From contig QPGO01000069.1 of NCBI GenBank assembly GCA_008632985.1, positions 372,001-436,000 of the forward strand: a stretch of 64,000 bases of DNA, in the 5' to 3' direction. The position numbers and the translations under genes were made by a program. This DNA comes from Psammoneis japonica. Its lineage: Eukaryota. Below are positions 13,401 to 60,600 of this stretch, piece after piece (positions within the stretch are counted from its first letter, which is position 1; each line of letters begins with the position of its first letter). A model generated the notes under the pieces. That model was given only the letters and a program-made list of their open reading frames with translations, had not been told where the DNA came from and did not search any database.

Positions 13401-13575
13401 AGCACTTGTTGTGGAAGGCGGCAAGGCTATGGTAGTGAGTGGCGATGGTAAAGCAACATGCCATGTGGTGGTTGCTGATTCAGAGACGGGCGAGACATTG
13501 ACTTCGCCGCTGATGCATGGTGAGGCACCGGCTGCTCTGGAAGAAATGATTGGTATGGTTGATTTCACAATATGA
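10417..13575 (+). CDS. Peptidase family S51 (dipeptidase E / cyanophycinase-like) protein with three tandem catalytic domains
   Basis: Three copies of YIGTASFD...SGGNT...GGSAGA (nucleophile elbow)...PHFD...IGIDENAAL. GTAAGT..TTTAG intron at 11185-11280 joins ORFs 10375-11238 and 11287-13575. Confidence 0.88.
11290..13510 (+). repeat. Intragenic tandem duplication, ~978-bp unit, near-identical
   Basis: The segment around 11770-12540 recurs at ~12750-13510 with few substitutions; TpA and CpG are retained. Confidence 0.9.
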
Positions 13576-25900: not shown

Positions 25901-25981
25901 AAGACTCCGGACAAACACTCTGTTGGAGAACACGGCAAAGACTGCCACGACGGCAACGATAATAACGTGTGCGCGCATCAT
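19901..25981 (-). CDS. Secreted calcineurin-like metallophosphoesterase fused to ~16 frustulin-like Cys-rich repeats with S/T/P linkers; multi-exon
   Basis: Signal peptide MMRAHVIIVAVVAVFAVF. MPP motifs AMGDTPY, HVGDIK, VGDNEW, FGHA, IHGD. Repeats LGECxGHCxxDDDCxxGLxCFxRxGFxxVPxCxGxGxxxxNYCY (ORF 21805-24444), continued in intron-containing units to ~20040. Stop at 19901 inferred by manual splicing. Confidence 0.8.
20010..21790 (-). repeat. Five ~352-bp tandem units, each an exon (Cys repeat + linker) plus a GTAAGT..TAG intron
   Basis: Motif ctctttcc(a/g)ctcgctccta recurs at 20046, 20399, 20750, 21102 and 21454. On the minus strand each unit reads ...FEP|gtaagt...tag|VPGCIGLGASGKSYCY. Confidence 0.85.
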
Positions 25982-26685
25982 CGTTGTTGTTTCTGTTGCA
26001 ATGGGCGTCGTTTCTGCGACCAATCTGCCGCTTACCCATGCAAAACCTTACACCGAATGAGGAGTCAAGAGACGCTGTGTTGAATGACTCTTTCATTTTG
26101 CTTCGAATTGGTTAGAACCTCCCTGGCTGACGCTCTGAGGAGTAACACACAAACACGGCAAGTCGTCGAGGATTCGCTTCTCAAAAGACGCTTGTGCTGC
26201 CTTGTGCCGGTGCCAGCGTTTTGGGTTTGCAGCACAAAATGTCCACACATGTGTGTCATACTAAACAACTCAGTAGAATGAACCAAGCATCAGTCTAAAT
26301 GTCATTTAACGAAACCTCACACGGTCCTTATTTGATTTTGCGCAAAACGAATCGCGGATTGAGAAAGACGTTAAGTATTCACCCTCAAAAATACATATTA
26401 TATTCGTTATTATATGTAAATAAAACCATAAGTCATTTTGCTCAGAAAGACTTATTTTAAAATATAGGTTTATTCAGAGACCAGGGTTCACATATAATAC
26501 AGACTACACTGCTGAACCCAACAATGACCGATGGGAGTTTCTGAACGATGGGTTTGCCGCGACCTGCAACTCTCGCCACAAAACGCAACAAGCACGAAAA
26601 ACAGCCTGGCACGCACAACTTGGCGTTTTTGCATGCGACTTTGCTTTGCTGACGCCACTCGGAAACACCCACGCTTCATGCCGAC

Positions 26686-31232: not shown

Positions 31233-31544
31233 CTCAGAAATGCTCTTTCTCAATCACTGTTGCGCAATAATTCTCTCTTTATGATTCCCAAGCGATCGCT
31301 ATGCTGACGAACTGAGGCACAGGCTCTCATATTATTCTCATCGTCGATCGTCGCAGGGTTTTGTTCTCCTTTCCCGTTTCCCGTGTTCTTCTTCCGCACC
31401 AAGCACCAACGAAAGGGCAATCGCGTGTAGAACTCGCGTTGGAAATGTACCAGACTTCTCATTTTGAGCGCTCGGGAGTCCAAGTTCGTCTGCCTTCCCA
31501 CGTTGCGTCCACCGTAGCGCATTGCTCGAAAGGAGAAACTCACA

Positions 31545-32420
31545 TCGATCTCAGCCAGCGCCATCCCCGTCTTCACTGCCCAACTGGCTCGCTCCTTCCG
31601 ACATGCAACCCACGGCCTCGCCACCTCCACTGGTGACCCCCGACTCACATTCCCCTTCTACACTCGCTCTCTCCGAACTTGGGCTACATCGAGACAATCT
31701 CTCCATTTGCACCAAGTGTTCCGTCATTGCGGCAATGCTCTGCTGCCATGCCTGGACCCCCCGCCCCCCTCTCTCCCTGCTCCAGTTGAATCTCATCTGC
31801 CCAAGACCCTTTCTCACACCATGTGTCACCTGCGCTTTGCCGACCAACTCGATCACCTTCACCGCCACCATGGCCCGCCACACATCACCACTGTGCTCTC
31901 ATCCATCCTTTCGCCCCCAACAAGTCTTCCATTGCACTTTCTTGCTTGCTCCATGTCACCCCAATGCCTGTCACCTGCCACCGTCCAGCTTGTGTTGCAA
32001 TGTAAACCATGCCCACCCATGTCATCCAACCAGCCTGCTCCCATCCCCTGCCCATCCTGCTCTGGCACAGCTGACCCATGTGGAGATCATGCCGTTTGTT
32101 GCCGCTCTCTCGGCCTCAAAACCACTCTGTCCAACTCCTTGCAAGATGGCCTCTTTGCCATTCTCTAAACTGTCAGACCCCTGTCAGGACTGTGCACCAC
32201 CTCCTCAGATGTGCATCATGAACCCACCAACCTCATTCCACATTCACCACTCAAGAGCGCCCTGCTGACATTGGAGTCAAACTGACCCCTGCCTGCTCCA
32301 CTGCTGCACCCAGCACCCATTCTCATCTTGCTGTCAACATTGCCATCCAAGACCCTGTGACCAAGGCACACCATGCAAGCACAAAATGGAAATTCCATGG
32401 GGCTCACAAAACTCAACATG
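31545..32420 (+). mobile_element. Non-LTR retrotransposon 3' fragment (RLE-type zinc knuckle plus RPAD-like motif)
   Basis: PCPSCSGTADPCGDHAVCC...KTTLSNSLQD at ~32040-32150, then cgccctgctgacattgga (RPADIG) at 32258. C-rich and TA-depleted. Confidence 0.6.
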
Positions 32421-32499
32421 GCACTGCCATCATTGCTTTTCCTCAATTGATGCCGGCATCTGCCTTGTGCCATTCACCATTTCAAGAGCTCGCCAGCCA

Positions 32500-33105
32500 G
32501 AGGCCGCCACTTCAAATGATGCAGCTGACCCCCAAAGCAAGATGCAAAATGGCGGACAAAAAATCCAAAGGCATGTGGAACACCAACTCTGGTGGCAATG
32601 ACTTCCCCATGCAAGCAAGGTCAGGTTTGTTGGCACACTGGAAGAAGGCAATTTCTAGCTGCACACCAAAGAAGCGGTTGATGCTGCGGAGTGTTGCTTC
32701 AACCAAACCAAGGCAATCCAATGTGGTCAACCAATGCAAACGACCTCATTGAAAAGGTCAAAAAAAAGGAAGCCCAGAATGAGAGCATGGCACACCATCA
32801 GAAAGCCAAGGAACACTGGGCTCAGCTCAAAACACTCATGGAAAACCAGACCAAGCCCATGCTGTGGAAAGTGTCTCTCTCATGCCAAGACTGTCCCGGT
32901 TTGTTCAGGCTCACATGATTGGCTGGCAGCACGTTGATGACTGCAATCAGCTTCTAAAAAAGAATTTACCCCCATCTGGCCCCAATGACTTTGTGCGCTG
33001 TGGGCAAGGCCAAATCAGTCAAAGTGCTGTCTGGAAGACAGAGATCCCCCAAACCAAATTCTTGCTGGGGTGATGGACCCACCGCAGTTTTGTCATCTGG
33101 AAAAC
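32500..33105 (+). mobile_element. Crypton fragment B (N-terminal part; homologous to 1290-1830)
   Basis: gcaagcaaggtcaggtttgttggcacactggaagaaggcaatttc (32610-32655) matches the reverse complement of 1682-1726. ..SRFVQAHMIG..DDCNQ.. and PNQIL-like motifs follow. Confidence 0.8.
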
Positions 33106-34849
33106 ATTGCTGCTCTTGACCAGAACTCATCTGTGCTGAATGAGAACCCTGGGTTCTTAACAAGTGCCAGCCAATTGTGAACAAAGCAAATTTAACAATC
33201 ACTTCTAAAGTTGAAGCAGGAAAATGTGCCCAATCTACAGGTCTCCTCATTGCCCATTCAATCTTGACAAGATTGCAGCCACAGTGATTTTGACATGACT
33301 TGGTTTGTGTCCATGATCAAACAAACATGCAAAGCAGGAAACAACAATCAATGAAACTTGTGACTTCCAATCATTTGTTCATTTCTGACAATGACTGCAT
33401 TCATTCATCTCATTGAGATGCTTGTGCATCAGCTGTGTGCTGCTTGTTTCTACAGCGAACATGTTTTTGCTTCGTGTTTGTTGCTCTTCCCTCCTTGGCT
33501 TTGTCCTGTCTCCTGCCAGTGCTCCAGTGCTGCAGCTGTTCTCTGTTGTCTTGCATGATGGTGTGATGCTTTGCTTGCTGCATTCCTTGTCCCTTGCAAC
33601 TGCTCTCACTCACCACAGCTGCATGTTGTTTGTTCCATGTCATGACCTTGTCTCTTTTGCTTGTCATGCCACAGTTTGCCAAAGTGTTGCCTGCAAAGAA
33701 GAGAAAAGAGCTTGCAGCAGATCAGAGCATTGCATGCGTTTTATCTCAAATGGGCTTGGCTTTGTGCAAATGGCATTTCTGCTCACCTTTGTGTGGCTGT
33801 GACCTTGTCTTTTTTGTTTCTTGTGTCAGTTTGCCAAAGCATCATCTTCAAAAAAGAGAAAAGAGCATGCAACAGATGAGAGCATTGTGTGTTTTTTGTT
33901 TTGAATGTGCTTGGTGCAAACTCTGTTTCTGCTCACCTTTGTGCAGCCCCTGCAGGGCCATCTTCCCTTCTGGCTCCCCTTGCATGTCAACATGTCTGAG
34001 TGGAAAGATTGGCAAAAGCATCAGTTGTTTGCATTGTTGCCCAGGCTCCATGCACTTGCCAACTCAGTTCCTCTTCTGTTGCCTTCCCTTGCTGCTGTCA
34101 TTGTCATGATGTTGGATGAGCCCTGTGTTTTGTGTTCTGTGTCTTGTGAGGCAATGATGAATTGTGTGTTCTGGCAATGTTGAGCCTGTCTGCCTGCTGA
34201 TTCCTGTCAGCATTGTTTTTAGGTGACAATTTTGTTTTAAAATTCAACACTCACATTCAGTTTTGAAGGTTTGAAAATGATTTGAAATGACTTGAATGAA
34301 TCATCAAGTCACCAAGGTTTTGCATGTGTGTTTGCAGTTGGTCAATTTCTCATTTTTTATCGTGTTAATGTGTTCTTGTCAAGATGGCATTTTCACAGTC
34401 TTGCTGCCACACACCATCTTTTTTCAATTGCTCTGGGACTTCAATCTCCACAATCTGCTTGATGCCCTCACGACCACATTTTCTTTTTGGTGTGTTGCAA
34501 CAATGCTGCCCAAAAATGTGTGAACTGTCCCTGTGGAGGCAGTGGTGGGCCGGCCATCCTTCTGCTCTGCCAACTGCTCAAACACAGGTGGTGGTCTTGG
34601 CCATGGTGATGCAGGCGGGGCTTGCAGATCTCAAGCTGGACCTCAGCCACAAGAGTCCAGCAGGAGAAGCATTTGGAGAAACCAAGGCTCTGCCACCCTG
34701 GAGCTGCTGCAGCACCAACTGGCAATCCAGCCACTGCTGCCACCTCCATCAACAACAAAGCCACTGCCCACCAGACCAACTCAGCCAATGACCCCCACTC
34801 TCTGGTCATTCCACCCAAAGCTCTTGAATTTCTCATGCTTTGTCACAAA

Positions 34850-35830
34850 ATTCCCGTGATTGTTGTTGCATCCCCTGGCACCCAATGGAGTCTCCTGTGG
34901 CCATCCAAGACAACTGAGCACTTGCCCATCACACATGTGTTTCCTGGTCTCTGCAGGGGTGTGGTGGCTGGGCCAAAGCCAGGCATGTCAGAAAGAAAAG
35001 GGGCTGCATTGATGCAGGACAAGGCCTTTGCTCCCCAACCAAGGTTGTTGTTGGCTCCCCAGGGACACAAGCCAATGGAGTCACCCAAGGCCATCCAAAA
35101 CTGCTGGGCACTTGCACCGTCACACAAAAAGCTCTCTGGCTGCATTGACACAAGACAAGGCTTTTGATTCCCAACCATGGTGGTTGCTGGTTTTCCTGGG
35201 ACACAATGGAGTCATCCAAGGCCATTCAAAGACAACTGGGTGCTTGCACTGTCACACAGAAAGCTCCCTTGTCTCTGCAGGTGGGGTGGCTGGTGGGTCA
35301 AAGCAGTGACCCAAGCCAGCCAACATCAGAAAAACAAAAGGGGCTGTGTTGGCCCAAGACAAGGCTTTTCCTTCCAAGCCATTGTTGTTGTTGCCTCCTC
35401 CAGGACCCAATGAAGTCTCTTGTGCCCATCTCAAGACAACTGCCTGAGTGCTTGCACTGTCACACAGATGGCTCCCTTTTTTCTTTGCAGGTTGGTTGGC
35501 CACCAGGCCAAACCCAGTTGTGTCAGAGAGACAAGGTGCTGCATTGACACAAGACAAGCCTTTTGCTTCCCAGGCGTTGTTGTTGCTGGCTCCCCTGGGA
35601 TCCAATGGAGTTGCCAAAAGCCATCCCAAGACAATTGAGCACTTGCACTGTTGCACAGATGGTTTTCTTGCATCTGCAGGTGGGGTGGCTGCTGGGCCAA
35701 ACCCAGGCATGTCAGAGAGATGGACAAAGGGCTGCGTTGACAAAAGTCCTTTGCTCCCCAGCCGTTGTTGTTGTTGTTGTGTCCTCTGGGACCCAATGGA
35801 GTCATCCAAGGCCATCCCAAGACAATGGAT
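34850..35830. repeat. Degenerate tandem repeat array, ~130-200-bp units
   Basis: Recurrent caatggagtcatccaaggccatc..gacaact..cacttgcactgtcacacaga..ctgcaggtggggtggc at about 34880, 35075, 35205, 35405, 35600 and 35795. Confidence 0.75.
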
Positions 35831-36093
35831 CACACAATGCAAGGGCAGGACAAACATGATCTGCCATTGTCCACAAAGCTGCTGACCTGCTTGCTGAGGA
35901 CAGGACAGGTGTGCTCAAGGGTAAAACCAAGGGTGACAAAGACAACCAAGTTGCACTGTTTTACACAGAAGCAGGTTTTTGGGTTCTGGTTGCCTCCAAA
36001 ATGGGGCACAGTGGTGGCAGATCCAGGATGTTTGCATTCACTGGTTGGTGGGAGCTGCGCATGCTTCATGAGCTTCATCAGCTGAAAAAAAAA

Positions 36094-37538
36094 AGGCAGA
36101 GATCTGACAAATGGAGGAAAAGGGGAACAAATGAAGCTGTTCTTAACAAGATTAAAATGAGAACAAAATGAATCACACAGGTGACTTAACATGATGCTTT
36201 TGGGCCACATCCACGTGGCCATCACTGTGAATTTTGACAAAAACACTCATGACCCAGAAAATCAATTTTTCTTCTTTCCAAAATGCAGACACTCGATGCA
36301 ACTCAAGTCCACCATGGGATGAGTTTTGGCAATTGCAACATTGAACACCAAGTGTGAGAAACACTCAGAGAGCATGTTAAAACCTCAATGTGATCACAAG
36401 GTGTGGGTCCTGAAGAAAGGTTTTTTCACTCAATGCCTCCAATCATCATCTGAACTTTTCACTTGATTTCTTTGTTTCTTCTCTGCATCCCACATGACAG
36501 CAAATGTTTTGAAGGTCATCTAAAGTGGGGTGCATCATGAAGGTGCCCATCACTTGGACAATGCATGCAATGAAGATGATGCAGAAATGCACAAGCTCTT
36601 TCTTTGGCAGCGTTTTTCTTGTCAAAAACAAAGGCAAGCATGTCAATCCTTGCTTGTCACCATCATTTGCAACAATCAAATTGACTCAATGTCTGTGTTG
36701 TCAAACCATCCAAAAGTTTCAATCAATGGCTCAAACACCTCCTTCTGTGACCAAATGAGACAATCCTGGGCAGTTGTCAGGTGTGTCAAAAATCCATGCA
36801 AGTTCCTGAGGAGCCGCAAGCAGTTGGACCTTGGACCCTGTGAATGTGCCAGCTCCAACCAAATCAATTCACAGCACAGCTTAAATTGTTCACTTTGTCT
36901 GCAAAGAAGCATTTTCAAGTGGTCAATGCTTCTAAGATTGGGGTCAATTTGTAGAAAATGCCACTGGCAACAGGCAAATGACAACAGCTGGCTCAAGCCC
37001 TTCTGTCATTCACCCGTTTTCATCATTTTGCATGCATGGAATGATGCGCAGTTTGTCAACAATGCAGATTAAATGCTTTGCAATGGTCCAGGAAGCATCT
37101 GCCACATGGAAGGATGTTGAACATGAGCAACAGCAAGAGTCAATGAGCACAGTCAGTTCCATTTAACCATGAAGGTCAATTTGATCCAAGACTTGGTGAG
37201 TGCACAGGCAGCCCTGTCCTCTGGGCTCCAAGCACTGGAAATCATTGCTGCAATGATGAGAACAGCTTTTGTCAAAGAGCAATTTGACAGAGTGGCACAG
37301 ACAAGTGCTGTTGACAGCCAACCATGACTCCTGGGAGCCACATGCTGTGACCTCAAGGAGATGCAACATGCCACAAGAACAAATTGAACCAGCAAACTCT
37401 GGCATGCAGAGAAAACACTTGCACGAGCCACACAGGTGACTCAAACAAAGGCAGAGAGCTAACAAATGGAAGAAAAAAAATGAAACTGTTCTCAACAAGT
37501 TTAAGATGAGGACAAAATGAGCCACACAGGTGACTTGA
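36094..37538. mobile_element. Degenerate element bounded by ~95-bp direct repeats (36094-36190, 37450-37538); possibly a DNA-transposon transposase relic
   Basis: ggcagaga..acaaatgga..aatgaa.ctgttct.aacaag..taa.atgag.acaaaatga..cacacaggtgactt occurs twice. Internal minus-strand ORF fragments are not confidently assignable. Confidence 0.45.
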
Positions 37539-37799
37539 AAAAGCAAAAAATGTTCAATTGACCTTGTGCCCAGCTGTGTCCCAAACGTGTCCCAAAATCT
37601 GGGTTTCTCTTTGGCACATTTCTGTGCAAATTTGTTGCAGACTTTTGTCCTTGTTCAAGGCATGCTCAGAGCAAATGTGTGCGGTCACAGATTTTAGCAT
37701 GCACAATCATTGCATGCCTGGTGAAAGAAAAAATTGGCAAAACAAGAAGCAGCCAAATGAAAGGTCAAAGCACATGAGGAGACCCTCAAAACGGTCCTC

Positions 37800-38560
37800 A
37801 GGACTCTGCCCAATGTTGTCTCAAAGCCAGAGCTGTCAAGGACAGCACCAAAACTGGATTGTGGCTGTCAGTGCACCCATCAACACTGAATGGCACAGAA
37901 CTCTCATGTCAAGAGACCTGTGACATGCTCTTTTTGTGGTGTGGCAGTGGCCTGCTCCACCAGACCTCCCCAAGCACTGTGACAGATGTGGCTGCAAATT
38001 CTCTGTCAACCATGCCCTTCAGTGCAAGAAGGGTGGCATGGTCATCTCACAACACAATGAAGTGCATGATGACAACCAGATGACCCAATTGGCACAACTT
38101 GCAAACCTTCCCACATGCACAACAAATGAACCTGTTGTTGACCCTGCTGGTTGCATCTCAGGAAGCCCAAGCAAGTGACTCCAATGGCACCCCAGGCAAC
38201 ACCAACTCCAACAAGTCCAAGGATGGTGATTGCAAAGATCTTCTGGCCATGAGCTTTTGGGACACAAGGTCAGACATGGTGTCAGACATTTGTGCCCCTG
38301 ATGCAGGCATGAAGTCACACCCATCAAAAACACCAGAAGAGGTCCCATCAGACCATGAACATGACCCTTTGTTGCATCATGCAATGGACTGCTTGGCAAG
38401 GAAGCCAAGGCAATGCTTCTCCTTTTGATTGCATCAAAGCTGTCTGATGGGTGGCAAAAACCTTGTTTGGAAGCATGCGGCTGCATCAAAGTCAGGATGA
38501 TCTTCACAACAGTTTGGGTGACCCATTTTTGCCTCAGGGAGATCCCAAGTGGGAGGATGG
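37800..38560 (+). mobile_element. CRE-like non-LTR retrotransposon 3' fragment (CCHC plus restriction-like endonuclease)
   Basis: PPDLPKHCDRCGCKFSVNHALQCKKGGMVISQHNEVHDD (canonical C-x2-C..HAL.CKKGG..RHNEVRD), then DLLAMSFWDTRSDMVSDI (RGDLL.RGFW...D). Confidence 0.75.
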
Positions 38561-39129
38561 CACAGGTCTGTCCCTCAACAGGCATCAAGGGACCACAATT
38601 TGGTTGGAATCCACTCATCCAGACAGAGTGTTAACCCAGTGTCTCTGCAAAGACTGCCGATGTCAAGTTGACAAGATGATAAAACCCTGCCACAGTGTTG
38701 ATCATGGTGCCAGAATCCACTTGAATTTTGCATGCACAGACAATGAAAACTTGTGCAACAACTTCCTCTTGCTTGCATGACTGCATCAATTGCACAACAC
38801 CCATTCTCTCTAAAATTAGGAGCTTGTTATGAAGAATTTGGAGTTCTGCTGGACACAAGGACATTTGTGACTTAAAAACCACCCCATGAGCAAGACAAAA
38901 TTGAAAATTTTGCAAATTGATCATTTGTGGAAGCAATCAGCACAAATGTGAAAATTCTGATCGTCAATCAGTTCTCTTCTGGCTGAGCATGGAAACATGT
39001 CACAGATGGTTCTTTTGCTTGGCAATCCAGCAAGAGGCATTTTGAGGTGCAGGAGGTGGTGTGCGGCAGAACAGACACCTCACATTTTTGGATTAACCAA
39101 CAACCTCATCTGCCAGAAGGAGCAGAAAA

Positions 39130-39670
39130 GGTGAAGTGATGCACTCCGAGGCAAGGTCAATGTTGTGCGTCATGGAAGAGCTCAAAGCCAGTGCTGGGAC
39201 AATTGTCATGCACAGTTGGAGCATCAACTTGCAAATGTGAAAAGCAGTGTGCAATGCCTTGCTTCCCAACCTGCATTTGGAGTTGTGCAAAATCAAAAAA
39301 GCAACCAACAAGCAGCCCAGCAGGAAATGCCCCACCTCATCAAGGTGCGAACAACAATGACAACCCAAACCATGTCCCTTGTGAGAGCACGCTGGTGCCA
39401 AATTCAGGGACTGCTCACATTCTGCCATGGCAACAGCATGAGAATGGAGTTGGTGGAAGGAAAGCAGTGCCACAAGCCTTTGTCAGAGAGGAGCGTGATT
39501 GAGTCAAGCACAAAAAGTGCCACAGAAGGAAGGTTTTCTCTGGGACATGGTGGCTGGGCTTGTCCAAGCTGGTTTGAGTGCTCAAACAGCTTGTGATCAT
39601 GTGCATCAGGTTCATGGCAGTGCAGCACTCAAATTGTCAATGCACTGAAAGAATGTGACAAGCACCACAA
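39130..39670 (+). mobile_element. Crypton fragment C (C-terminal part; homologous to the reverse complement of 1-525)
   Basis: gagaatggagttggtggaaggaaagcag and gtggctgggcttgtccaagctgg align with copy A. ORFs 39093-39473 and 204-479 are visibly homologous. Confidence 0.85.
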
Positions 39671-41564
39671 CACAGTGTGAGTCCATGGCTGTGACTGCAC
39701 ACTCCATGTCAGCTCATGTCTGTTTGTGTTGCACGCCATGTTCAATGTTCATGTTGCATGCCATGCATGCTTTCTTCACTCTTCTTTTTAGAGCCAAAAC
39801 ATTTCTTGAGTGTTCCTTCCAATTGAAGCACCAGCATTTGGGTGCTGCTTGCTTTTTCTGACAAATCCATCTTAATGGAATGAATTTTTACACAACAAAA
39901 ACAAGCCTGTCAGATCTCTGTGCAGCTGGCATCAAAAACTGTTTGGATGTTCTTTGTTGCCATGTTCAAAACTGATGCTGTGTTGCACCCTCACCTTTTT
40001 CATGAAGAAGAAACAATGCACAAAGATGGAACAAAGTTGCAAGAAGAGATCAGAAAATTTTGAGGACAAGCAATTGAAGATGAATCTTTCTAAAAAAAGA
40101 CACAGAGAAGGGTGGGCTGTGCAGCAGCAAAGGGAAGCACCAAACTGATGAGTGGTGCATTGCTGTGCATGAGCTCCAAACTGAAAGAGCTTGCGTGTCC
40201 CATTTGCAACAACATCTGCATGTCCTGCACACAAGAGAGGAAAGGAGGGGTGGTTGCCTTGATGCACAGTGTCAAATCAGAGGCTCTCTCTCCTGGGAAA
40301 CTGAAAGCTCACCTGCTTGTTGCATCTGGTGCAGTCCACCCCAAGGAGAAACAAGGCCACAGACTTGGCAAGAGAAGCCCTGCTTGAAAAAAGGCTTGTC
40401 AATTTGAGGAGCAGTGCAGGGTGCAAGATCACCAGCTTGTTGGCAATTTTCAGGGAGGCAACAAAGCTCAAGCCCTCATTCATCCAACTGGGGCAGCATT
40501 GGGTGAAGCAGTTGAAAATGTGGCTCTTCTACAGGCTGAAAAAGAGACACAACATTTGTCCTGCTGCACTCAAAAATTGTGAGCTGGGCAGAAGTCCCTC
40601 CCCTGATGGCTGGAAAACATGTTGACAAGAAGTGTGACAGGGTCATGCACCCTCACAAAATTGTTGGGGTGCCACATGATTTTGTTGCTGCAACTCCCAC
40701 AGCATTCTTTGTGCCAATCAGAGTGCACCTGGGGCAAGATGGGGGATCTGGAAGGTGCAGCACATAAACCAGTGGAAAGGAAAAGGAGCAACTCATTGTG
40801 CTTTCTCCAAGAAGAGCAACAAGTTGTGGCCATTTGTGATTTGGAAAGGTGCACCGGTGAGGCACAAGACAAGAGCTGGGGTGGGGGAAAGACAAGCTTG
40901 ATGGTGAGCGTCCCTCTGAAGACAAAAGATTGCAGCAGCAGCATCAAAGACTGTCAATTCCTTGGGTGAGTTTGCAAATGATGTGTTGGGTCATGACGTT
41001 CTTCCTGGCACAAGGGCAGTTGATTCAGAGGGAAAGGAAAATGGGGCAACGCCAGCAGCGCTTTTGTTCATGGCTTCAAAAAGGGCATTCAAAGCAGTGC
41101 ATTAAAGACAGGACAGCAGAAGGGATTGTGCCCAAAACACAGCTTATTGACACTTTGATTGACAAAATGTGAAAGGCGCTCTGTTGTTGGGACCTCTGTG
41201 TGATGTGCACATGCACCACTGGTGATCCAATTGATCCATCCAGGCAGCTTGTGGTTGTGCAGTGGACATTGGAGGCCTGTGAGAAGGTCCCTGAGGAGCT
41301 GGTTTGCAAGTCCTTGCTTCTCGGTTGCTGGCAAAGAGGAGGATCTAACTAATGAGCCGGTCCAAGAACCTGCACAGCCAAAGTTGAAGCTGAAACAGCA
41401 GCAGAGTGCAGAGACAGAATTGTTCACTTAACCAGCAATGCAGTGGGCAAAGATGTGGCAACCGTGCTGAAGCAGTCAAAGGATTTTGATGGAAGCAACA
41501 TGGAGGATGACAAGGAGGATAAATTGTGCAGTTGTCTCATTTTTGTTTTAGCAGAACAAACCCT

Positions 41565-41754
41565 TGACAGAACACCGAAGGTCAATGATGACAGAGGTGT
41601 GAAAGACTCCCCAAGCACTGGGACTGTGACAACACGAGCACCAGTGGCTGGATGAGAAGTGAGAGGCAGATCTCAGAGAGATCTGCTCGTCCATCCAAAT
41701 GTTCTGGTCATCATCCGTGTGCAGTCTGTCCATCACAGGACAGATGGGCTGACA
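41565..41754 (-). repeat. 3' LTR of the Copia element
   Basis: tgacagaacaccgaaggtcaatga...gggctgaca, preceded by TSD accct and followed by the PPT complement ccctcccc. Confidence 0.9.
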
Positions 41755-44700
41755 CCCTCCCCTGATCTGCAATGTCTAAAGATGGAAGACAATGCAAATC
41801 AAAACAAAAGCAGGGACAATGCAAACAGAGAGACCAAAGGACACAACAAGTGTCCAAGCCCAATGCGCAACAGACAAGGGGGCAATGCACAGCAGGGGAG
41901 GCCACCACAAAAAAAAGTCAACGGCAGTGTCCCATCATGCATCGAGCGTGGCGAGCATGGAGCGCCCATCCCAAAGCCTTGGCAAGGTCATTGCCAGGAT
42001 TGACAATGCCAGGGATGTGTCAAGTGACAACTTCCCTGCCTCCTTCCACTCTTGGATTGCAAAGAACTGAGTTTCAATGTGGCGTGAGCACTTGGCAGGA
42101 ACAGAGTGGTTGATGATCTTGATTGCCAATTCGTTGTCAACATGCAGGGGCAGGCTTCATCTGGAGAAACCCAATTCATGAAGAACATGGCAGAGACAAA
42201 GGACATGTTTGGCAGCAGTGCCAGCAGCATGGAATTCTGCTTCCACAGAACTTGTGGTGGTCACAGATTGGGTCTTGCAACGGAAGGAGATGGCAGCACT
42301 GACCAACATGCAAGCATGACCTGTCATAGAATGGCAATTACAAAGATCATTGCCATGGGCAGGATCCAGAAAAGCAAGAAGTTGATGGTCACATTCAGCA
42401 GTGGGAAAGGACGGCAGTGCTGGGTCAGCAATCAACCATTCAAAAGGACAGGTGGGCAGACTGGAATCATGTTTCACCTTCTTGCAATTCAACTCCCAGT
42501 GCTTGGTTTGCCAAAGACATTTGCATGCACCCTTCAGCACATCACAGCAGCGCACTGCAGCAGGGCAGGCAGAGAATTTTGAAAGGGTGGTGACAGCATG
42601 GCCAACATCCAATTGACGTGTGACACACATGTGCAACAATTCACCAAGGAGAGTGCGGCATCCAAATCCAGCAGCCTCTTCAAGCTCCGCATGCTTGGGT
42701 GCACCTTCAGCAGGACCAATGGCAGGGCACAACTCTTGAATGGAGTCAACTGGGATGGGAGTTGCCTTGAATTTGTCAGCAAGTGTTCATCCAAAGCCAT
42801 GCCCATTCAATGCAACTGTGGACAGCAATGCCAATGGAGTCATTGCACTGGTGAATGTCCACACCATCAAACTCTTCAATGAGCCCAAGACACTTGAACG
42901 GCAGAGCAGCTTCCAAGGAAAGTTGGTGGAGAGCTTTGCCAATCTTGTCGCAGATCTTGATTGCATGTGATTCTTTTGGACATGCAATCAAAAAATCATC
43001 AACTTGATGCAGCAACAAGATCTTGTGTCCTTCAAACACAGCAAAGTGGGTGCATTTGTCATGCACAGCATTGCAAAACAATGAGGTCACATTTGAAAAA
43101 ACAGAGTTGATGTGATTCTCCCAGCCAGAGCATGCCGGCTTCTGGGTGTCCTTGGAGTGCATGTCTCATCAGCAACACCATGCTTCTGTCCAAGTCAATG
43201 CCAAAGCAGGACTTGCACCAAGTCACATGTGCATCGTCTGTTGCAACACAGACGGGATGAGATGGCTGGGGTGAATGCGCACAGGCATCATGAGCATTGC
43301 CTCCAAACACAGGATGGCTCACAGCAGCTGCCAAAGCAAAAAACATTCATTGCACAGGCTGTTCAACACAAGAGGAGTGCATCAAATGAAGATGGTGTAG
43401 AACAGAAGCTGCACATGGAGAGCTGTCACAACATTGTCAAGAACGATGTGTGCCATCATGCTTGAGATCACATTGCCAATGTGGACGTGGGACGACAGCA
43501 TCTTTGGGATGCTTGGTTGGGGCACCAAACATGCCCAATTCATGAAACTGATCTAATTGCTTGAACTCGCCTGCATGCCATTCAGGCCATGCAGACAGCT
43601 TCTTGAGACAAGTTTGGGTGAAAGCACCCAATGCCTGCTCCTCGGGAGTCATGGTGTGGGAGGACATTGCATGAATGTCAACAACACCATTGTCATGATC
43701 AGTGGAGACAGGAGGAAGGGTCTTGTCATTGTGGATGTCAGGAAAATCAGCACCTGGATGATGAATTGTGGCAATGGCATGCATGTTGGCGGTGGTCAGC
43801 TCTGGGACATGCTCGTCTTCAGGGTCCGGGGTGGGAGAGAAGATGTTGTGTTCCACCAAGGCGCGTTGCAATGCTTTAGAATCAAGTCAACGTTCAGGCA
43901 CAAAAGCAATTTCAAAATGAGTCTTGCCCAATTCATGTGTGTGTTGCAGACATTTGACGGTGTCTTCAGCAGCAAAACATGTTGGTCATTGACCAAAACA
44001 ATGCAAGCACCCAGGATCTTGTTTTGCATTGCCTTCAGGGATGAGAACAGGCAAGCAGCAGGAGTGCCACATTTGACATCAGAGACAAACACTTGTTGAC
44101 AGAGTTTGTTCACAGTCAAAGACAAATCAAAGTCGGGATCAGCAAAGGGGTCCTTCATTGCATGTGTGATGGTCTGGGCAAAAGGGTTGACACCGAAGTG
44201 AAATTCATCAACCGTCATTTCCTCTGGCTCAGCAGGAAATGGCTCACCAGCCTGAGCACACTCCAAGTGGACTGCATTCTGAGGAACAGCTCCATGATCC
44301 AGGTCATTCATGCCCTCGTCAAACCAGATGTGTGTTTGGCAAGCTTGACCCAAGATGTCTTGGCATCATGCCACAAAATGTTCTTTGCAGCATCCGGAAG
44401 ACAGCCCAGGAACATGCCCTTGCAAGAGTTGGTCCAGAATTTTGCCAGACAATGGTTGGAAGTGTGGATCCAAACCCGGCAACCAAACATTCGGAAGGCA
44501 GTGAAGTCATCCTTTTGACCAGCAGCAAGGGCAATCGGGGCAGCAGTCTGTCATCTCTGGATGGCACAGCATTCTTGATCCAAAGGCAATGATGAAAAGC
44601 ATGCGACCAAAATTTTGTGGGCAAATCAGCACCTGTCAGCATCGCCCAAATGGCATTCACAATGGCCAAATGACTCCGTTCAACTGGGCCACTCTGGTTT

Positions 44701-47700
44701 GAAGCATCTTTCCCAGCAGGACAAATTGCACAATGGAAGTCATCCTCAAAAAGTTGCCAAGCCGCTGGTTGTTGTGCAGTTTGCCACCCTGATCCAGAAA
44801 AACATGTTTGTCTGGACATTTTGGCAAGTGCTCTTCCAGAAAGTGGCAAATCCAATTCAACGGAGCAGCCTTAGAAACACGAGTGGTGCCATGGAGGTGC
44901 TTCGTAGTGCAATCACAGACAGTGATCCAACAAGTCTTGCCATTCAAACCAACGCAGTCCTTGGCACATTCTTCATTCTTAGATCATAAGCCAGAGAAAG
45001 AAAAATCTGCTGTGAGACCTTGGTGGGGTTGAGTGGCAGTCAAAGCATGTTCGGACCAGCAGGTTCCTTTGTCTGCTCAGCACGGATGCAAGTGGGACAA
45101 GTGTCAAGGGGAGATGCACCATGTGCAAACTTTGGAACACCATCAACATGTTCATGGGCATGATGCAAACAGTGATCACTCAGATGGCCAAGTCATTGAT
45201 GCCACAGGAGACGTTCCGCATCAGCCTTGAGGGATTGAACAGGAACAGTCTTCTTGGCATGTTCCTCAAAAGGCATGTTCTGACAACATTGGGGAATCAA
45301 CTGTCATTCCACACATGAAGCATCATGTTGGTGTCCACAATGTGCTTCAATCATGTGCACCAAGACTGCTTCACATTCTTCAGCAAAGGATGGATCAGCA
45401 GTCTTCAACCTTGCAATGGATGCATTGAGTTCATCGTGAGATTCCGGCAGCACAAGTGGGTGAGTGCAACATTTGCCATTGATCAATTTCCCATGCATGA
45501 CAATGTCCTGACTCTTGTGCAGTTGATGCCGTGCAACAAATTTGCAGGCTCCAAGGTTGTGGAACTTGAGAATGCAATCAACATTGCAATCTGTGTGATG
45601 GGCACTGTTCTGGCACAGTGGCAAGCACTCATCTGCCAAGGTGGACTGAATCTGCAGGTGGCAGCATGTGCGGACCTCAACAAAACCATCAGAATTCTCT
45701 GCAGGCACATGAAGACATCCGAAGCCAACTGGCACAGCTTCATGTCCAAGAGCTGGGTTGACAGCAAGTGGGCACGGATTCCTCATTGAAGTGAATTCTT
45801 GACATCAGTGGAGGAGATCACGATCTCCAGCACAGGCAATGTCAGCATCACCAGCATCCAGCTGAGCACATCATTCATTTGGTGCAAACTTGACAGCGTT
45901 GATGGCACATGTCATGCGAGCCAATTCCAGTGCAGTTGGTTCAAGGATGTGGGATGGGTCAATCAGAGTGACTCGGACAGAGTTTGCTGCAGCAAATCCA
46001 TCTTCAACAGCCATGTCATCACAGGTGAGATTGATGAATTCCACATGGTCATGTTCATCCTTCCCCTGGTCCAAAGGATCTGGAGCAGGATCATCATCCA
46101 CTTCAACATGGGGGAGAGCAGGGTTGTCATCCGGTGGCTTGGTGATGTCCGAGGATGCCATTGGGTGGGAGCATGGGCACTGACCTTGGGGTCTTTGGAA
46201 TTCAGAGGAATGCATTGCTGCTTCCCTCTTCAGAAGCTGACAAAAGCACACATGGAAACCCTCGATGCATGGATTGCCATTCAAGACAGGGCACTCATGG
46301 AATGAGTGTTCCTTGGAACAGATGATGCGCGGTTTCTTGGAGGCCTCATTGGGAGCAACCTTCAGTTTGCATGCAGAAGCCAAGCATGCATGATGAAGGA
46401 GATGATCCTCATCTGCAGGTGGCACATCCATGTCAGCCAGTTCTGCACAAAGGGCATCAAATTGGTCATCCGGCGGATCATCTGCATCATCTGGCACCTC
46501 AACAGAATCATCCTCATCAAGAGACACGTCCGGGACAGACAAAGCATTGACATCAAATGTGGCATGCTTGGGGTCTTCTTGATTCCGGTCCCATTTGTGG
46601 TGGATTGCAAGGATTTGCACAAGTGCAAAGTGAAGGACTGCCCAGTTGACGAAGGAAGTCAGAAAGAGTTTCAACAATCTGAGCATCTGTGTGCTTCTTG
46701 AGCACACTTGTGGACTTCCATTCATCCCCAGTGGTGTGGGACAAGTGCTTGGAGCATTTGGTGTTCTTGATGAATGCAGTCATCTCTTGTGGATCATCTG
46801 ATGTAGAGTCCGCATCAAAGACACAAGTGCACAACTGTGGAAAATCATTGAAAACCATGTGGCAGTCCATCAATGACAGATTGCCTTGAGCAAGACAGGA
46901 ATCTGCCAATCCAGCAGCTTCATGGTCAAAAGCTGGATGATTCTTGTGGACACTCTGCTTGAGAGCCTTGCTTCCATTGCCACAGCAGGAGGCAACAATC
47001 CGATGGTGCTTGCTGTTCTTGGGGAACATGTCTGACTTGGATGGAATCTTGTGGAGAGAACTCTGGGCTTCTTTGCAATGGACATGCACGCATTGATGTG
47101 AGTCATCATCCTTGCCGTTTCCAATCATGAAACCCTTCTCACCACCTTGATCCTTGGTGAAACACCACAAAGGGTGGACGCAGTGTCCTGAATTGAAAGA
47201 GTGGTGTTGGAAGTTTTGATGCCATGCCTGTGTCCCAGCAGGAGAGTCATCATGACAGATGGGAGGTTCCCTGAACAACATTTTCTGATCAGGAGTTGAG
47301 CTCATGACATGAAGCATTCCATCATTGAGAATGATGTGATCAGAAGCATCAACATGATGATGGAAACCATGGTCACAGTGGATGAGAAAACTCTTCAGGG
47401 CAGCCGCACCATGTTCCTTGCAGCCGCATTGTTCTCATGCATCAGTGGGTGGAGTGTTGGGTTTGAAGAGACACTTCAATGTTGTGGATGATGTGGCACT
47501 TCCTGATGTCTTGGCAGTGGCAGTGGAAGGTGGAGCATGGCTCGACACAAACTTGTGGAGGGCTGTCGCCAAATCATTCACACTGACAGTCGCAGTTCCT
47601 GAACCAGTCCAGGATGAGGGTGCAGGCTGTTGCTTCTGCTGGTGGGGCCCAAGGGAAAACTCTTTCCAATCCTGATGATTCCATGTTGCATCTGGATCAA

Positions 47701-48320
47701 CATGGATGTGTGAGCAGAGATGACAATGAATGAGGTCTGATCATGACTTTCTGAAGGTTCATCTTGATCATGGATGACAGAGCTGCAGACATCAAACAAA
47801 TTGCACAAGGCCTGTTGGGGTCTGCAATGCAGAACAGAGCTTGGTCCACAATCATTTTGATGGATTGCATGTCCGCAGGGTCCACCGTGCAAGGTGGAAA
47901 CGCTTGATTGACAAGACAGTCTTGGAGCAAGTCTGCAACACTCGTCTTGGGTCAAGCATGCTCTGGATTGTCAAAGAACGGGTCCAGATCAAATGTTGAA
48001 TCCGCGTGGATCTCATTCAGGCATGCATGGAGATGTGGCATCGTCGTGTGTGCTTGGAATTCACGCAACAGATCTCTGCAACAGACGCAGGAGCAGCCTT
48101 TGCAAGGTCGGGAGACGCCATGGTTTTACTTGGGGAAAACATTTTTGGTCATGCACGTGCAGAAATCTGGCGTGTTTCTACGGTCGTGAAAAATGCGGGA
48201 AAACACGAAAAAATTTGTTTCAGGAACAAAGACGAGGCTTGCTCGATCGGCTCACAAAACAAATGAATCGAAACAGAAAGTGTGGCGCAGAGTTCTGTGA
48301 CACAGCGCAAGGCCACAACC

Positions 48321-48470
48321 TGACAGAATGCCGAAGGTCAATGACAATGGAGGTGTAAAAGACTCCCCAAGCACTGGGACTGTGACAACATGAGCACCAG
48401 CAGATGAGAAGTGAGAGGTCTGGTCATCATCCGTGCACATTCCATCCATCGTACGATGGACAGGCTGACA
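48321..48470 (-). repeat. 5' LTR of the Copia element (internal ~40-bp deletion relative to the 3' LTR)
   Basis: tgacagaatgccgaaggtcaatga...caggctgaca followed by TSD accct. Confidence 0.9.
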
Positions 48471-48543
48471 ACCCTCTGCTCTCTGCCGGCACTCTAGAGA
48501 GCAGATTGGCACCTCTCCCCTTGCAGCTTTGGCAGCACTGGTT

Positions 48544-49860
48544 AAACCAGGCCTGCGGGGAGCATTGACCACTTGTCTTTCTTTTTGTGGGTGTGGGTGT
48601 GTGCCGTTGCATGCTGCATTGCCTGTGCGCACGCAGGTGGCAGCGTGGCCACCACACCGGTGACGCGGATGACCGTTGTGTCTGATGTCTCATGCCATTT
48701 TTGGGGCTGCAGCGAGGTGCACGGACACTCTTTTTTTTCCAATTTATCGCCACAATGGCGCATCGCACAAACTCACTTGTTGTTTGATGTGTTTTCCCAG
48801 TGTGACTGTCTCGTGCAGAATTCACGATTGATTGTCTTTGTTCACAACTGAGTGCATTTTTCAACATGCCACGCCGGCAATCCCAATTTTTGAGAACTTT
48901 CGAGCTCTCCTGAAAAACCGTGCCACGCACCCGTCGCAGGGAATTTGTCGATTTTTTAGGATGTCCCCACGACCTCTCATGTCCTCAATGATCATTCTGC
49001 GAATCCAAAGAATTCATCTGTGCCAGACAACCCATGCCGTTCCAAAATCTGAGGGACACACTTTCAAATTCAGATGGACTGCCCGACTGCCCGACTGCCC
49101 GACTGCCCGACTGCCTGACTGTCCGACTGCCCGACTGCCGGACCGACACGAAAAAGTCTGCAATCACCAACCACTGAGTGGTCAATGAAATGTGTGCTTG
49201 TGGAAACCAGGCCTGCGGGGAGCATTGACCACTTGTCTTTCTTTGTGGGTGTGGGTGCATGTGTGCCGTTGCATGCTGCATCAGGGCCCTGCTGCCGGGG
49301 CCGGCATTGTGGCGGCTGAGTGGCATGGCCACCGCACCGGTGACGCGGATGACCGTCACATTTGATGTCTCATGCCATTTTTGGGGCTGCAGCGAGGTGC
49401 ACGGACACTCTTTTTTTCCAATTTATCGCCACAATGGCGCATCGCACAAACTCACTTATTGTTCGATGTGTTTTCCCCAATGTGACTTTTTCGTGTAGAA
49501 TTCACGATAAATTGTCTTTGCATGTAACTGAGTGCATTTTTGAACATGCCACGCCGGCAATCCCAATTTTTCAGAACTTTCGAGCTCTCCTGAAAAACCG
49601 TGCCACGTGCCCGTCGTAGGGAATTTATCGATTTTTTAGGATGTCCCCACAACCTCTCATGTCCTCAATGATAATTCCAAGAATCCGAAGAATTCATCTG
49701 CACTAAACAACCCACACCCTTTCAAAATCCAAGGGACACACTTTCAAATTCAGACGGACAACCCGACTGCCCGACTGCCCGACTGCCCGACCCCCCGACT
49801 GCCCGACTGCCGGACCGACACGAAAAAGTCTGCAATCACCAACCACTGAGTGGTCAATGA
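48544..49860. mobile_element. Two tandem ~650-bp copies (48544-49188, 49204-49860) of a non-autonomous element with subterminal inverted repeats, a (GACTGCCC)n microsatellite and a terminal hairpin (MITE or Helentron/DINE-like)
   Basis: CATTGACCACT at 48563/49223 is inverted as AGTGGTCAATG at 49177/49849. Hairpin ACCACT-G-AGTGGT. 8-bp repeats at 49077-49140 and 49762-49812. Confidence 0.7.
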
Positions 49861-50051
49861 TCTGCACCTGTTTCTGCGGACCCCTTCATACCCTGCACTA
49901 CATCTGAACCAAATTCAGTAGACCAGATTTTCGATGACTAGGAAATTTGTGCCAAGATGAAACGGGAAACTCTAACCTAAAGTACAAGCATGAATTTGCT
50001 GAAATCTGAGAGAATGCATTATGTTTAGTTGTGAAGTGTGGTTGATCTAGT

Positions 50052-57649: not shown

Positions 57650-60600
57650 ATTTGGCGACGTTTCTCCGTTGAAATCGTCATCTTTGTCACAGCCATTTTT
57701 CTCACTCGATTTGTGATCATCACGACCACCGTAGACCACACACCAGTGTTCTGCGCGGGATTTTGATTTTTTTCCCGCGCAACCATGGTGCCGACTGAGC
57801 AAACTTCTGTCGATTTGACCAAGATCAAGTCGACACAGGTCGAATTCAAACCGCAAAATCACTTGCCTGATGCCCATCATTGCCTGAATGCACTTCATTC
57901 AGATGCGACACCTGCTCCTGAAGATCTTCTGGATGGTCTTCAATCTTGTTCATTCACCCATGCCAACCTCCCCAACTCAGCCCCGCCAACCCTTCTCCTG
58001 CGCTCAAGCCGCCAAGCAACCTTCCCAAGACACCCATTCTGAAACCACCTTTTCTCTCTTTGCTGTGTCTTGGCACCCTCCTCTGCCCTCCTGACTCTCC
58101 TCACCTGCCCAGAAGTGCTTCTTCCCACCCTGCCGAGACATTGACACCAACACTGATGCAGAAGCTCTGTGCCGCACCTCTTTTCACACCACCTCTTGGT
58201 TGGAAGGGGGTGCTGGGTGAGGTGGAGGTGCCAGAGGGCTCCATTTCTGGAGGGTGGACCTGAGGAGTTGGGGCTGTGATTGGAGCAAATGGCTTCTCTT
58301 GCAGCAGGGCAACCTGCTCCAGGGAGTGACAGGTGACATGGCATTGAGCACGTGCAGCAAAGGTGTGTCAACAGCATGGCAGTCATGTTGGCAGTGAACA
58401 AGATCCATGCTTTCAGAGGGGGTTGTGTTGTCAGGACCTGGCCCACCTCCTCTGGGACCATCTTGTCATGGCCCACAAGCACCAAAGCATTCTTTGAAAT
58501 GTCCTTCTTGACTCCTTCTTTGAGCAACACAATCTTTGCCCTTGTTGATGCCATCAAAAAATGCTGAGATTTGTCTGTGCAACTCCTGCCTCAATGCCCA
58601 CATTGCCAACAAGCACCATTGCCCCCACACCTCTGCCAGCCTTTGACTCATGTCTTCTGGCCACCCTTCAAAAAAAAATGCCTGGCTGGACCTCTTCCCT
58701 CCAGTGGCCTGAAGCCCTCACTCTCACACCTTTCCCTTTTTTGAGCCTCCCTCTGGCACAAGCTGTCCTCATCCTCCTGCCTCCAAGCTTGTCACACCCT
58801 CCACCCTCTCATCAGCATTGACACCTCTGCCCCCTTTTGGACAATGACTCCCCTCCCCTTGGCAAACCTCTTCAGCCCCTTGTTGGAAACTCCTTTTTCT
58901 TTTCAAGTCCCTTGTTCTTTGCCCCCAACCCAAGACATCTGACCAGCCACACTTGTTCTCTGCCCTCATCTCCAAGTGCCTTCCCTTTTTTGAAACAGCC
59001 CAGTTTGCTCTTTGGATGACTCCTCTCAAGTCTCAAGCAGAGCCTCCCCCACCACCCCTTCTGATGACCCACCCAATTTGATGCCTCTTTGCCAGCATCC
59101 CAACCAGCACCATGACCACCATCTTCAATGGCCACCCTTCCTTCAGCATGAAGGTTTTGTCCAAGGTTGCCCCCCTGGCCCCACTTTCTTGAGCCTTGTC
59201 CTCATGTGTGTGCTCACCCCACTTGACCAAGAACTGCATGCCAGTGCTTCTTCCCTCCCCACTCCTCCCCAGATCCAGCACACCAGCCATTGGAGTGCAG
59301 ATCACAGACAGAAAATGGAAGGTGTCATTGTTCTGCAGGCTGAAAAAATGGTCGGGAGACAAAGAAAAATCCTTTTGGGAACAAAAAATGATGTTGGCTT
59401 GATTGGATCACAAAATGATGGAGTCAAAAAGAGAGCACATCACAGAGTTCAGCAACACAGCTCAAGGCCACAACCTGAAAGAGTGCTGAAGGGCAAAGAG
59501 AATGTGGTGACATGACAGGCTCCCCAAATGCTGGGGCTGTGGCGGTGGTGCAAGCACCAGCAGAAGAGAATGAGAGGAGGACAGCAATGTGGCAGACTCC
59601 ATGAGCACCAGGGCTGTGACAACATGAGCACCATCAGAAGAGAATGAGAGGTGGATCTCAGAGAGATTTGCTCATCAGTCCAAAAGGGTGGTCTGGTCAT
59701 CATCCATGTTCAGTCTGTCCATGGTGTGAAGATTGCTTTCTGGAAAAGATTTGCAACCAGCAGCTCTTCTGCAGGGTCTTTGGTCTCTGGTGGGCTCACA
59801 TGATTGAGGGCATGTTCTTGCAAGAGATCAGCCACAGCATCTTATGATTTTGCACGTTTGGCATCACAAAAAAAAGTTGAGCCCAACGGTTCTTGAGCCA
59901 CCACAAAGGCAGCACAAGTGCTCAGAAGCCCCACTGCAGTGAGGACACAGTTGGAACACTGTGCTGATCTCCACAAGGGAGTCAACGACAGTCTTTTTGA
60001 GGGTCAGATGTGCCACGGTGGAGGGCAAAAAATGCACACACACCACAAAACAATTTTGTTGACAATGCTGGGAAATGTCAGCTGCAGAAACAAAAAATGG
60101 GCTGGCTTGATTGGCTCACAAGCAAAACAAGCCATGGTGGAATTTTCAACACAGAAAAGAGCACAAACTGCTCACAAGGCCACAACCAGTCAGAACAGCA
60201 ACAGCCAGCTGAGCTGACAAGCACAAGAGTCCTCTCTGTAAACTGGCAACAGCAACAACACATGCACTGGTGAGAAAGAGTGAGAAGAGCAGATCTCAGA
60301 GAGATCTCACTCATCTGTCTGAAGGGTCTGGCTGTCATCCATGTGCAGTCTGACCATGTGCAATGGTCAGTCTGCTGACACTCTCACAATGACAGCCCAG
60401 CTTGCTGCCTCTCTGTTTCTCTTGGCAGCGCTGGCTGCCATGACATTCCTGATGCTGCAGCTGTCCTGCCCTCTCTCCATCTCTCTTGCCCACTCTCTCC
60501 TCTTTGCCAAACAAGGCATCCACTCAACAGGTGCTGACCAACACTTTTGCCTGCCTCCCAGCTGGTCTGCTGCCCTCTCCTCCTGGTCTGACCCGTGCCA

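Follow-up and report, generated by a model that had tools for sequence, protein, structure and literature searches.

TpA dinucleotides are rewritten to TpG and CpA in integrated copia retrotransposons of Psammoneis japonica

In a 64,000-nucleotide stretch of the Psammoneis japonica genome (contig QPGO01000069.1, positions 372,001–436,000; hereafter the window), a single Ty1/copia retrotransposon lies on the minus strand at 41565–48470, and its TpA (TA) dinucleotides have almost disappeared. The element is bordered by two copies of the target site duplication (TSD) ACCCT, read directly at 41560–41564 and 48471–48475. It comprises, on the minus strand, (i) a 150-nt 5′ long terminal repeat (LTR; 48321–48470) from which 36 nt are deleted in comparison with the 3′ LTR and the rest of the family, (ii) a primer-binding site (PBS; GGTTGTGGCC, the reverse complement of 48311–48320), which presumably matches an initiator tRNA primer, (iii) a putative gag/protease/integrase N-terminal region (44948–48120), placed there by the copia gene order and lacking a Pfam match, (iv) broken integrase-region remnants (44332–44947; tblastn to residues 1–213 of homologue P0004), (v) a broken reverse transcriptase (RT)/RNase H region (41921–43712; tblastn to P0001–P0004), (vi) a polypurine tract (41755–41762), which also precedes the 3′ LTR in other family copies, and (vii) a 190-nt 3′ LTR (41565–41754) in which 4 nt are inserted in comparison with the 5′ LTR. 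Both LTRs have TG...CA ends (TGTCA...TGTCA type) on the minus strand, and the order of tblastn matches to P0004 and P0002 places integrase before the RVT_2-type RT and RNase H, as in Ty1/copia elements. The RT/RNase H remnants are 35–74% identical to RVT_2 proteins, with named relatives from Nitzschia, Fragilaria and Cylindrotheca; such diatom Ty1/copia elements bear the family name CoDi.

Only 15 TA steps remain in the 6.9-kb element (observed/expected ratio, o/e, 0.03). Its CG o/e is 0.28 and its AT o/e 1.11, and for genes of the window the ratios are 0.46–0.57 (TA) and 0.82–1.04 (CG). The element is embedded in a TA-depleted repeat block (31500–49300) with sharp edges against the neighboring genes, a VPS9-domain gene on the left and a transketolase gene on the right. 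Its sense strand contains 212 TGA triplets versus 8 TAA or TAG triplets, and none of its nine open reading frames (ORFs) gave a match in a Pfam search, direct domain matches having been lost to mutation.

Comparison with homologous proteins revealed which dinucleotide was the original one. In alignments with four intact, overlapping homologues, tyrosine was retained at none of 88 positions, having been replaced mostly by Cys (40), His (27) and Phe (11), while 84% of Trp, 78% of Phe and 72% of His residues were kept. A set of 21 Tyr-rich columns drawn from 122 homologues gave the same picture (12 Cys, 6 His, 2 Phe, 1 Ser and no Tyr). The named diatom homologues, which are annotated proteins and thus biased to intact copies, keep their tyrosines, with Cys and His together at 0–10% of Tyr columns. 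Arginine positions of the element show the pattern of CpG decay (Arg to Cys, His or Gln). Judged by these alignments, the protein evidence fixes the direction of change independently of the LTR sites.

The first-pass annotation of this DNA had proposed that the two LTRs belong to one insertion and record mutation of TA on the integrated copy. The first part is borne out by the intact TSD and by a private state, one T short, which is common to both LTRs and absent from all 53 other LTR stretches of the family; among the scored matches, none paired better with the 5′ LTR. The LTRs differ at 22 of 150 aligned bases (20 transitions and 2 transversions), and by the 36-nt and 4-nt indels, which had been overlooked. 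These differences amount to 14 events: eight CA/TG doubles, two TA versus TG/CA, two CG versus TG/CA and two transversions. All 20 transitions fall in TA, TG, CA or CG steps (mean 10.4 and maximum 18 in 20,000 random placements), which contradicts the possibility, allowed for earlier, that the differences are independent of context. The eight CA/TG doubles likewise exceed the random expectation (mean 0.56, maximum 4 in the same number of placements of 20 transitions).

CpG decay, which the first-pass annotation had missed, is heavy in the window copy (67 of 421 CG-type sites still read CG), so CA/TG mismatches alone give no direction. We therefore read the ancestral state from the 53 other family LTRs, whose sites are of two kinds: occasional TA with almost no CG, or the converse. 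By this measure seven of the 14 events lie at TA-type sites, two at CG sites, two at nearly invariant CA sites, one is a probable reverse change and two are transversions. The four examples originally quoted are also mixed (41573–41574, 41635–41636 and 48356–48357 are given on the plus strand). The CA/TG mismatch at 41573–41574 versus 48329–48330 (family: TG 10, CA 42, CG 0, TA 0) and that at 41720–41721 (TG 16, CA 14, GA 20, CG 0) fit a former TA. The CG/TG mismatch at 41635–41636 versus 48391–48392 is CpG decay (CG in 39 of 53). The fourth, 41600–41601 versus 48356–48357, does not show TA to TG: 47 of the 53 LTRs carry the state of the window's 3′ LTR, an almost invariant TG, so the TA of the 5′ LTR is probably derived, allelic or an assembly error, and position 48357 reads G in all three short-read contigs that cover it. 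A true TA remnant is found at 48452–48453 (plus strand) of the 5′ LTR (family: TA 7, TG 24, CA 20) and has been lost from the 3′ LTR. The suggestion of a TA to TG change within the PBS is also consistent with the family, since positions 4–5 of 26 PBS-like sequences read TG in 21, CA in 5 and CG in none. Two CA/TG mismatches at the nearly invariant CA sites, together with one transversion that separates common family alleles, leave room for gene conversion over a short part of the 5′ LTR, which could possibly account for the mismatches at invariant sites.

Sites of the internal region, compared over 37 copies, are divided in the same manner: 100 show TA only, 470 CG only, 172 neither and 17 both. 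At CG sites, CG was retained in 42% of the copies, which indicates that sites without any CG were mostly TA. The family itself is saturated: its 30 excised loci have TA o/e values of 0–0.15, and none of 40 scored candidates (RT-region identity 69–82%) was a lightly mutated copy. The direction was for this reason taken from homologues, from site classes and from other families.

Two younger families show the process under way. For the first, a copia family (F1), a naturally occurring copy whose 348-nt LTRs are identical (L111) was the reference, and its relatives reach down to 78% identity. Of 26 projected copies, six without a TSD match, six whose stretch held only one LTR or none and one older copy (L122) were excluded from the polarity, context and hot-bin counts, and the near-identical, almost clean 6.5-kb copies L113 and L117 served as a polarity filter for the step counts. 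In the remaining 11 TSD-matched copies, 1260 of 2890 TA steps had changed to TG (719) or CA (541) and six to CG, in comparison with the loss of 141 of 4006 CG steps and a reverse change (TG/CA to TA) at 14 of 9969 steps. At TA, 21 transversions were found versus 1214 transitions. In the second family, one copy (L077) had lost 79 of 98 TA but 19 of 110 CG relative to two agreeing relatives (L051 and L053). These counts show that TA changes to TG or CA, almost only by transition and on both strands, more than 10 times faster than CpG decays and more than 100 times faster than non-CpG C to T change in the same DNA. TA is therefore lost first, and CpG decays later; the window element shows both. 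In five metagenome loci related to F1, TA is not depleted (o/e 0.58–0.88).

The changes accumulate after integration. The two 348-nt LTRs of one F1 copy (L114) differ at eight TA sites and one CG site and nowhere else, and in 15 TSD-matched F1 LTR pairs we counted, by hand, 67 TA sites changed in the 5′ LTR only and 18 in the 3′ LTR only. TG and CA changes are interleaved within every F1 copy, and, excepting pairs that share flanks, different copies agree in the choice of strand at a median of 0.59 (170 pairs). At the window locus, long contigs assembled from short reads match the TA-free sequence, each with 0–6 differences. In contigs of one sequencing run (X1) whose depth is close to single-copy, TA is still present at 43650, 43973, 45938 and 46597, where the window has CA or TG. 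Among the 40 listed of 86 differences between X1 and the window, 11 within the element were examined (those close to single-copy depth, plus 45599 and 48357), of which five are TA-type, four CG-type and two other. X1 may be the source sample, and these differences represent allelic or clonal variation, not independent replication. The change thus follows reverse transcription and continues after insertion; the earlier conclusion, that TA was ancestral at most CA/TG mismatches and mutated on both strands of integrated DNA, stands on better evidence than the examples quoted for it, and the feature is real and unusual.

Within F1 elements TA loss is highest at 400–2400 nt (5′ untranslated region, UTR, and gag), where it exceeds that at 4200–6200 nt in 10 of the 13 TSD-matched copies (Wilcoxon p=0.006); the 3′ LTR is usually spared. 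This 5′-weighted gradient was seen on both genomic orientations. None of the F1 copies covering gag combines a clean gag with a mutated RT, so ascertainment by the RT query does not explain it. In one F1 copy (L132), the 5′ LTR is almost clean while the interior and the 3′ LTR are mutated, and a large part of the 5′ LTR has likewise escaped in L120, L129 and L131, a pattern that would suit protection of an active promoter.

The base 3′ of the adenine influences the rate: relative to T, the effects are +0.78 for C, −0.34 for G and −0.75 for A (bootstrap intervals exclude 0), which gives the ranking TAC>TAT>TAG>TAA. A to G change outside TA is also raised in hot versus cold bins when a pyrimidine (Y) follows (AAY 1.9 vs 0.5%, CAY 1.5 vs 0.12%, GAY 0.46 vs 0.11%), and is not significantly raised when a purine (R) follows. 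Non-CpG C to T change is flat between these bins, whereas CpG loss is 2.9 versus 0.9%; CpG decay is therefore raised in the same stretches as TA loss. After correction for context there was no strand bias (s=−0.08, confidence interval −0.26 to 0.09). A raw excess of TG over CA (526 vs 322; 104 vs 65 in palindromic tetramers) came from a pseudo-replicated test that included two places without a TSD match, and it vanished when flanking bases were modelled with a site-level bootstrap in TSD-matched copies. Processive same-strand patches were likewise rejected (agreement 0.515 vs a null of 0.500; 37 of 300 shuffles as high). The strand is chosen independently at neighboring sites, in keeping with accumulation over many cell cycles.

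We assign a probability of roughly 0.6 to the reading that a mutator of the host converts the TpA of integrated transposon DNA to TpG or CpA by TadA/ADAT2-type adenine deamination on silenced chromatin. According to this model, an enzyme preferring a 5′ T and a 3′ pyrimidine would be recruited to newly silenced, CG-methylated transposon chromatin, where it would convert adenine to inosine, to be fixed as A to G at replication. The window element would represent the end state, with TA nearly gone and CpG decay following, both converging on TG and CA. TadA prefers UAC/TAC. The genome contains a TadA-like gene (L153) with Asp, read by eye, at what we take to be the equivalent of D108, and an ADAT2-like gene (L156) with Asn at that place. 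Twenty-seven matches to DNA_methylase (PF00145) lie on several contigs (8 of them below an E value of 1e-28; stops interrupt some), and the set of C5-methyltransferases appears to be expanded. A natural ADAT2/3, that of amphioxus, deaminates adenine in DNA (PMC10354150).

Several observations weigh against this reading. Nothing connects a candidate enzyme with the mutations. TadA and ADAT2 serve tRNA as housekeeping enzymes, the genome showed just one TadA-like and one ADAT2-like locus, the Asn of L156 is presumably the usual residue in ADAT2, and amphioxus ADAT2 prefers GAA, not TA, for adenine (PMC10354150). TA is palindromic, so sequence cannot separate a lesion of A from a lesion of T, and the missing strand bias leaves a transcription-exposed single strand unsupported. 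The polarity rests mainly on F1, and the 5′ bias is well tested in that one family, where three of the 13 copies show the reverse (one barely mutated, two near saturation) and where the LTRs taken by themselves give 9 versus 3 copies with 3 ties. The other families were seen only for 1.5 kb on either side of RT, where 14 of 16 were lower upstream, a weak comparison with an uncontrolled baseline, and the saturated family of the window has no 5′ gradient, its residual TA being flat to slightly higher at both ends. Finally, 6 of 21 two-LTR F1 places have no matching TSD; near-identical copies were probably joined there during assembly, so the gradient could be made steeper by polishing or collapse. 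These places are L112, L115, L118, L121, L125 and L137, several of which share a flank with another place; a 1.1-kb mutated tract in L069 was set aside for the same lack of a TSD match (L125).

The main rival of adenine deamination, which we consider unlikely, is a thymine lesion: enzymatic oxidation at TpA in silenced DNA would yield 5-hydroxymethyl- or 5-formyluracil, which mispairs with G. The resulting TA to CA/TG spectrum would be identical, the context preference can equally be read as purine-T-A, and 5-hydroxymethyluracil occurs on dinoflagellate repeats. The genome also contains a zinc-dependent deaminase domain fused to a DIOX_N/2OG-Fe(II) dioxygenase (L155, 313–1785, minus strand), the two halves of which match the two rival chemistries. 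Its oxygenase, however, is of the small-molecule DIOX_N type, and the fusion probably serves nucleobase catabolism. No TET or JBP match was found in the genome, a weak negative because the control genomes were equally silent.

Error-prone repair or replication of silenced transposon DNA by a Pol eta-like polymerase, which acts at WA (W, A or T), appears quite unlikely. Somatic hypermutation strikes TA more than any other WA target, and AAY is indeed the strongest side target here. AA, however, changes about 20-fold less than TA, AAR is not raised and CAY about equals AAY; moreover, the scarcity of transversions and the absence of same-strand patches both speak against such a polymerase. Deamination to inosine of N6-methyladenine on transposon TpA, enzymatic or spontaneous, would mirror CpG decay and explain why the target is a palindrome and why TA loss overlaps with that of CpG. 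Eukaryotic N6-methyladenine is mostly found at ApT and in active genes, and the AT o/e of the element (above 1) also counts against this route, which we likewise judge improbable.

ADAR-like editing of RNA or of the reverse-transcription intermediate, copied into new insertions, was considered because two A_deamin loci are present. As the first-pass annotation had argued, it predicts one strand and identical LTRs; instead, TG and CA are interleaved, the LTRs of one insertion differ, alleles of the window locus differ at TA, and strand choice between copies is mostly at the level of chance plus context. TAG, the optimum of ADAR, is moreover a poor target here. ADARs do prefer a 5′ U, as stated in the accessible text of a recent preprint (bioRxiv 10.64898/2026.01.13.699255). 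Editing of RNA or cDNA is contradicted by the LTR and allele data and is excluded. An equally remote idea, that all CA/TG mismatches are CpG decay or stem from LTRs of different insertions or from misassembly, draws on real CpG decay (the Arg changes and two LTR events) and on the room left for conversion in the 5′ LTR, but Tyr loss cannot arise from CG, the shared private state and TSD unite the LTRs, the short-read contigs reproduce the sequence, and the Tyr, F1 and L077 counts refute CpG decay as a full explanation.

Elsewhere in the window, two gene tandem arrays at 19982–24543 (a 352-nt unit repeated 5 times, and 204/264-nt units repeated 8–9 times in a 912-codon Cys-rich ORF with WAP/PAN-like matches) are spared despite repeat identities of 89–93% (TA o/e 0.72 and 0.54), so duplication alone is not the trigger. 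An inverted duplication at 24542–27924, with arms 70–75% complementary, has normal TA content, and an ORF at 11281–13575 encodes three Peptidase_S51 domains on 978-nt repeats. Two tandem copies of an approx. 680-nt repeat of unknown class (48540–49960), which is dispersed over the genome in at least 40 copies, have a TA o/e of 0.18 and a CG o/e of 0.84, that is, TA lost without CpG decay. Inverted copies of another mobile element (65–1737 and 32600–39617) are both TA-poor, and the copy at 1–2000 keeps a CG o/e of 0.6. Distant LTR-like matches to the family of the copia element (about 62–75%) lie at 59555–59746 and 60310–60357, inside another TA-free block.

Several practical consequences follow from TA loss. 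The LTRs of the window pair diverge by 14.7% in total versus 1.3% outside pyrimidine-purine steps (9.3 vs 1.2% over 14 family pairs), so LTR dating is inflated about 8- to 11-fold; mutated elements escape Pfam detection, and the loss of TAA and TAG leaves long false ORFs. No natural enzyme is established as a targeted A to G mutator of DNA, and one, if found, would interest base-editor developers. Copies at graded stages, from one whose LTRs are identical to saturated relics, are present in this genome; the series fixes the direction, the motif, the order relative to CpG decay and the region of densest loss, and makes the search for an enzyme testable in a group for which genetic tools exist.

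Among known systems, repeat-induced point mutation (RIP) of ascomycetes alters integrated repeats by dinucleotide-specific transitions in both strands, destroys their ORFs and is tied to methylated heterochromatin; it is premeiotic and involves the RID methyltransferase. The process described here works like RIP in its two-strand, dinucleotide-specific transitions and its destruction of ORFs, yet it fails the defining tests of RIP. The chemistry is opposite, as RIP creates TA from CA/TG, a change that is rare here (14 of 9969 steps); duplication is no trigger, the tandem arrays being spared and L113 and L117 nearly clean; and same-strand patches are absent. APOBEC3/AID enzymes edit retroelement DNA with a deaminase motif preference. 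Such a preference is shared, and the 5′-weighted gradient recalls somatic hypermutation, but the change here is A to G, not C to T, and occurs after integration on both strands without strand bias, leaving LTRs that differ.

Amphioxus ADAT2/3 shows that a natural TadA-family enzyme is able to deaminate DNA adenine; in the sections of the paper available it prefers GAA, TCG and hairpin loops, and no transposon targeting is described (PMC10354150). Methylation of transposons by DNMT5-type enzymes, reported for diatoms in the part of the source available (PMC9998398), accounts for CG to TG/CA divergence, but the resulting CpG decay cannot remove TA and is more than 10 times slower in young copies.

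The closest parallel is Bigelowiella natans, in which, according to the accessible text of a preprint (bioRxiv 10.64898/2026.01.13.699255), integrated DNA of nucleocytoplasmic large DNA viruses (NCLDV), as well as of virophages, undergoes TpA hypermutation, TpA-poor coding sequences are enriched for RT and DDE domains, transposons are hinted at as targets, and ADAT2 is proposed, though not shown, to act. There the process is active now, in some lines only, at about 1000-fold above background. As in B. natans, the changes observed here are almost exclusively T:A to C:G transitions at TpA on both strands, are confined to foreign or mobile DNA (in one 64-kb window plus the fetched loci) and run far above background; the allelic TA differences at the window locus and the ratio of more than 100-fold to non-CpG C to T change would fit a process that is active now. 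The hosts belong to different supergroups (diatom-type versus Rhizaria), and the main targets here are LTR retrotransposons, with an o/e of 0.03 versus 0.45 in the NCLDV region. The single-species result of the preprint is thereby extended to stramenopile retrotransposons. The terms 'diatom', 'LTR' and 'flanking' are absent from the preprint's main text, and a 5′ bias, a flanking preference, strand independence and a link with CpG decay are not described for B. natans in the preprint text covered. New here are the density in the 5′ UTR and gag, the strand independence, the ranking of contexts, the lack of strand bias and the sparing of tandem arrays. In the literature covered, to which subscription papers mostly do not belong, this preprint was the only report of a TA-erasing signature, and none concerned diatoms.

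Six of the 122 copia RT homologues, all from other datasets (P0032, P0094, P0089, P0083, P0019 and P0120), show Tyr to Cys or His at 25–70% of Tyr columns; they fall in about three families, 41–55% identical to the element, and are possibly from further hosts of the process. It is conceivable, though we hold it only tentatively, that diatoms and chlorarachniophytes share an 'adenine RIP', in which a natural DNA adenine deaminase is guided to new mobile DNA, nucleates in the 5′ UTR and gag of LTR retrotransposons and, together with silent chromatin, extends from there until no TpA is left. If so, it would be the first natural genome-editing pathway based on an adenine deaminase, an old defence of the SAR (stramenopile, alveolate and rhizarian) lineages, and the Tyr-poor RTs would mark further hosts.

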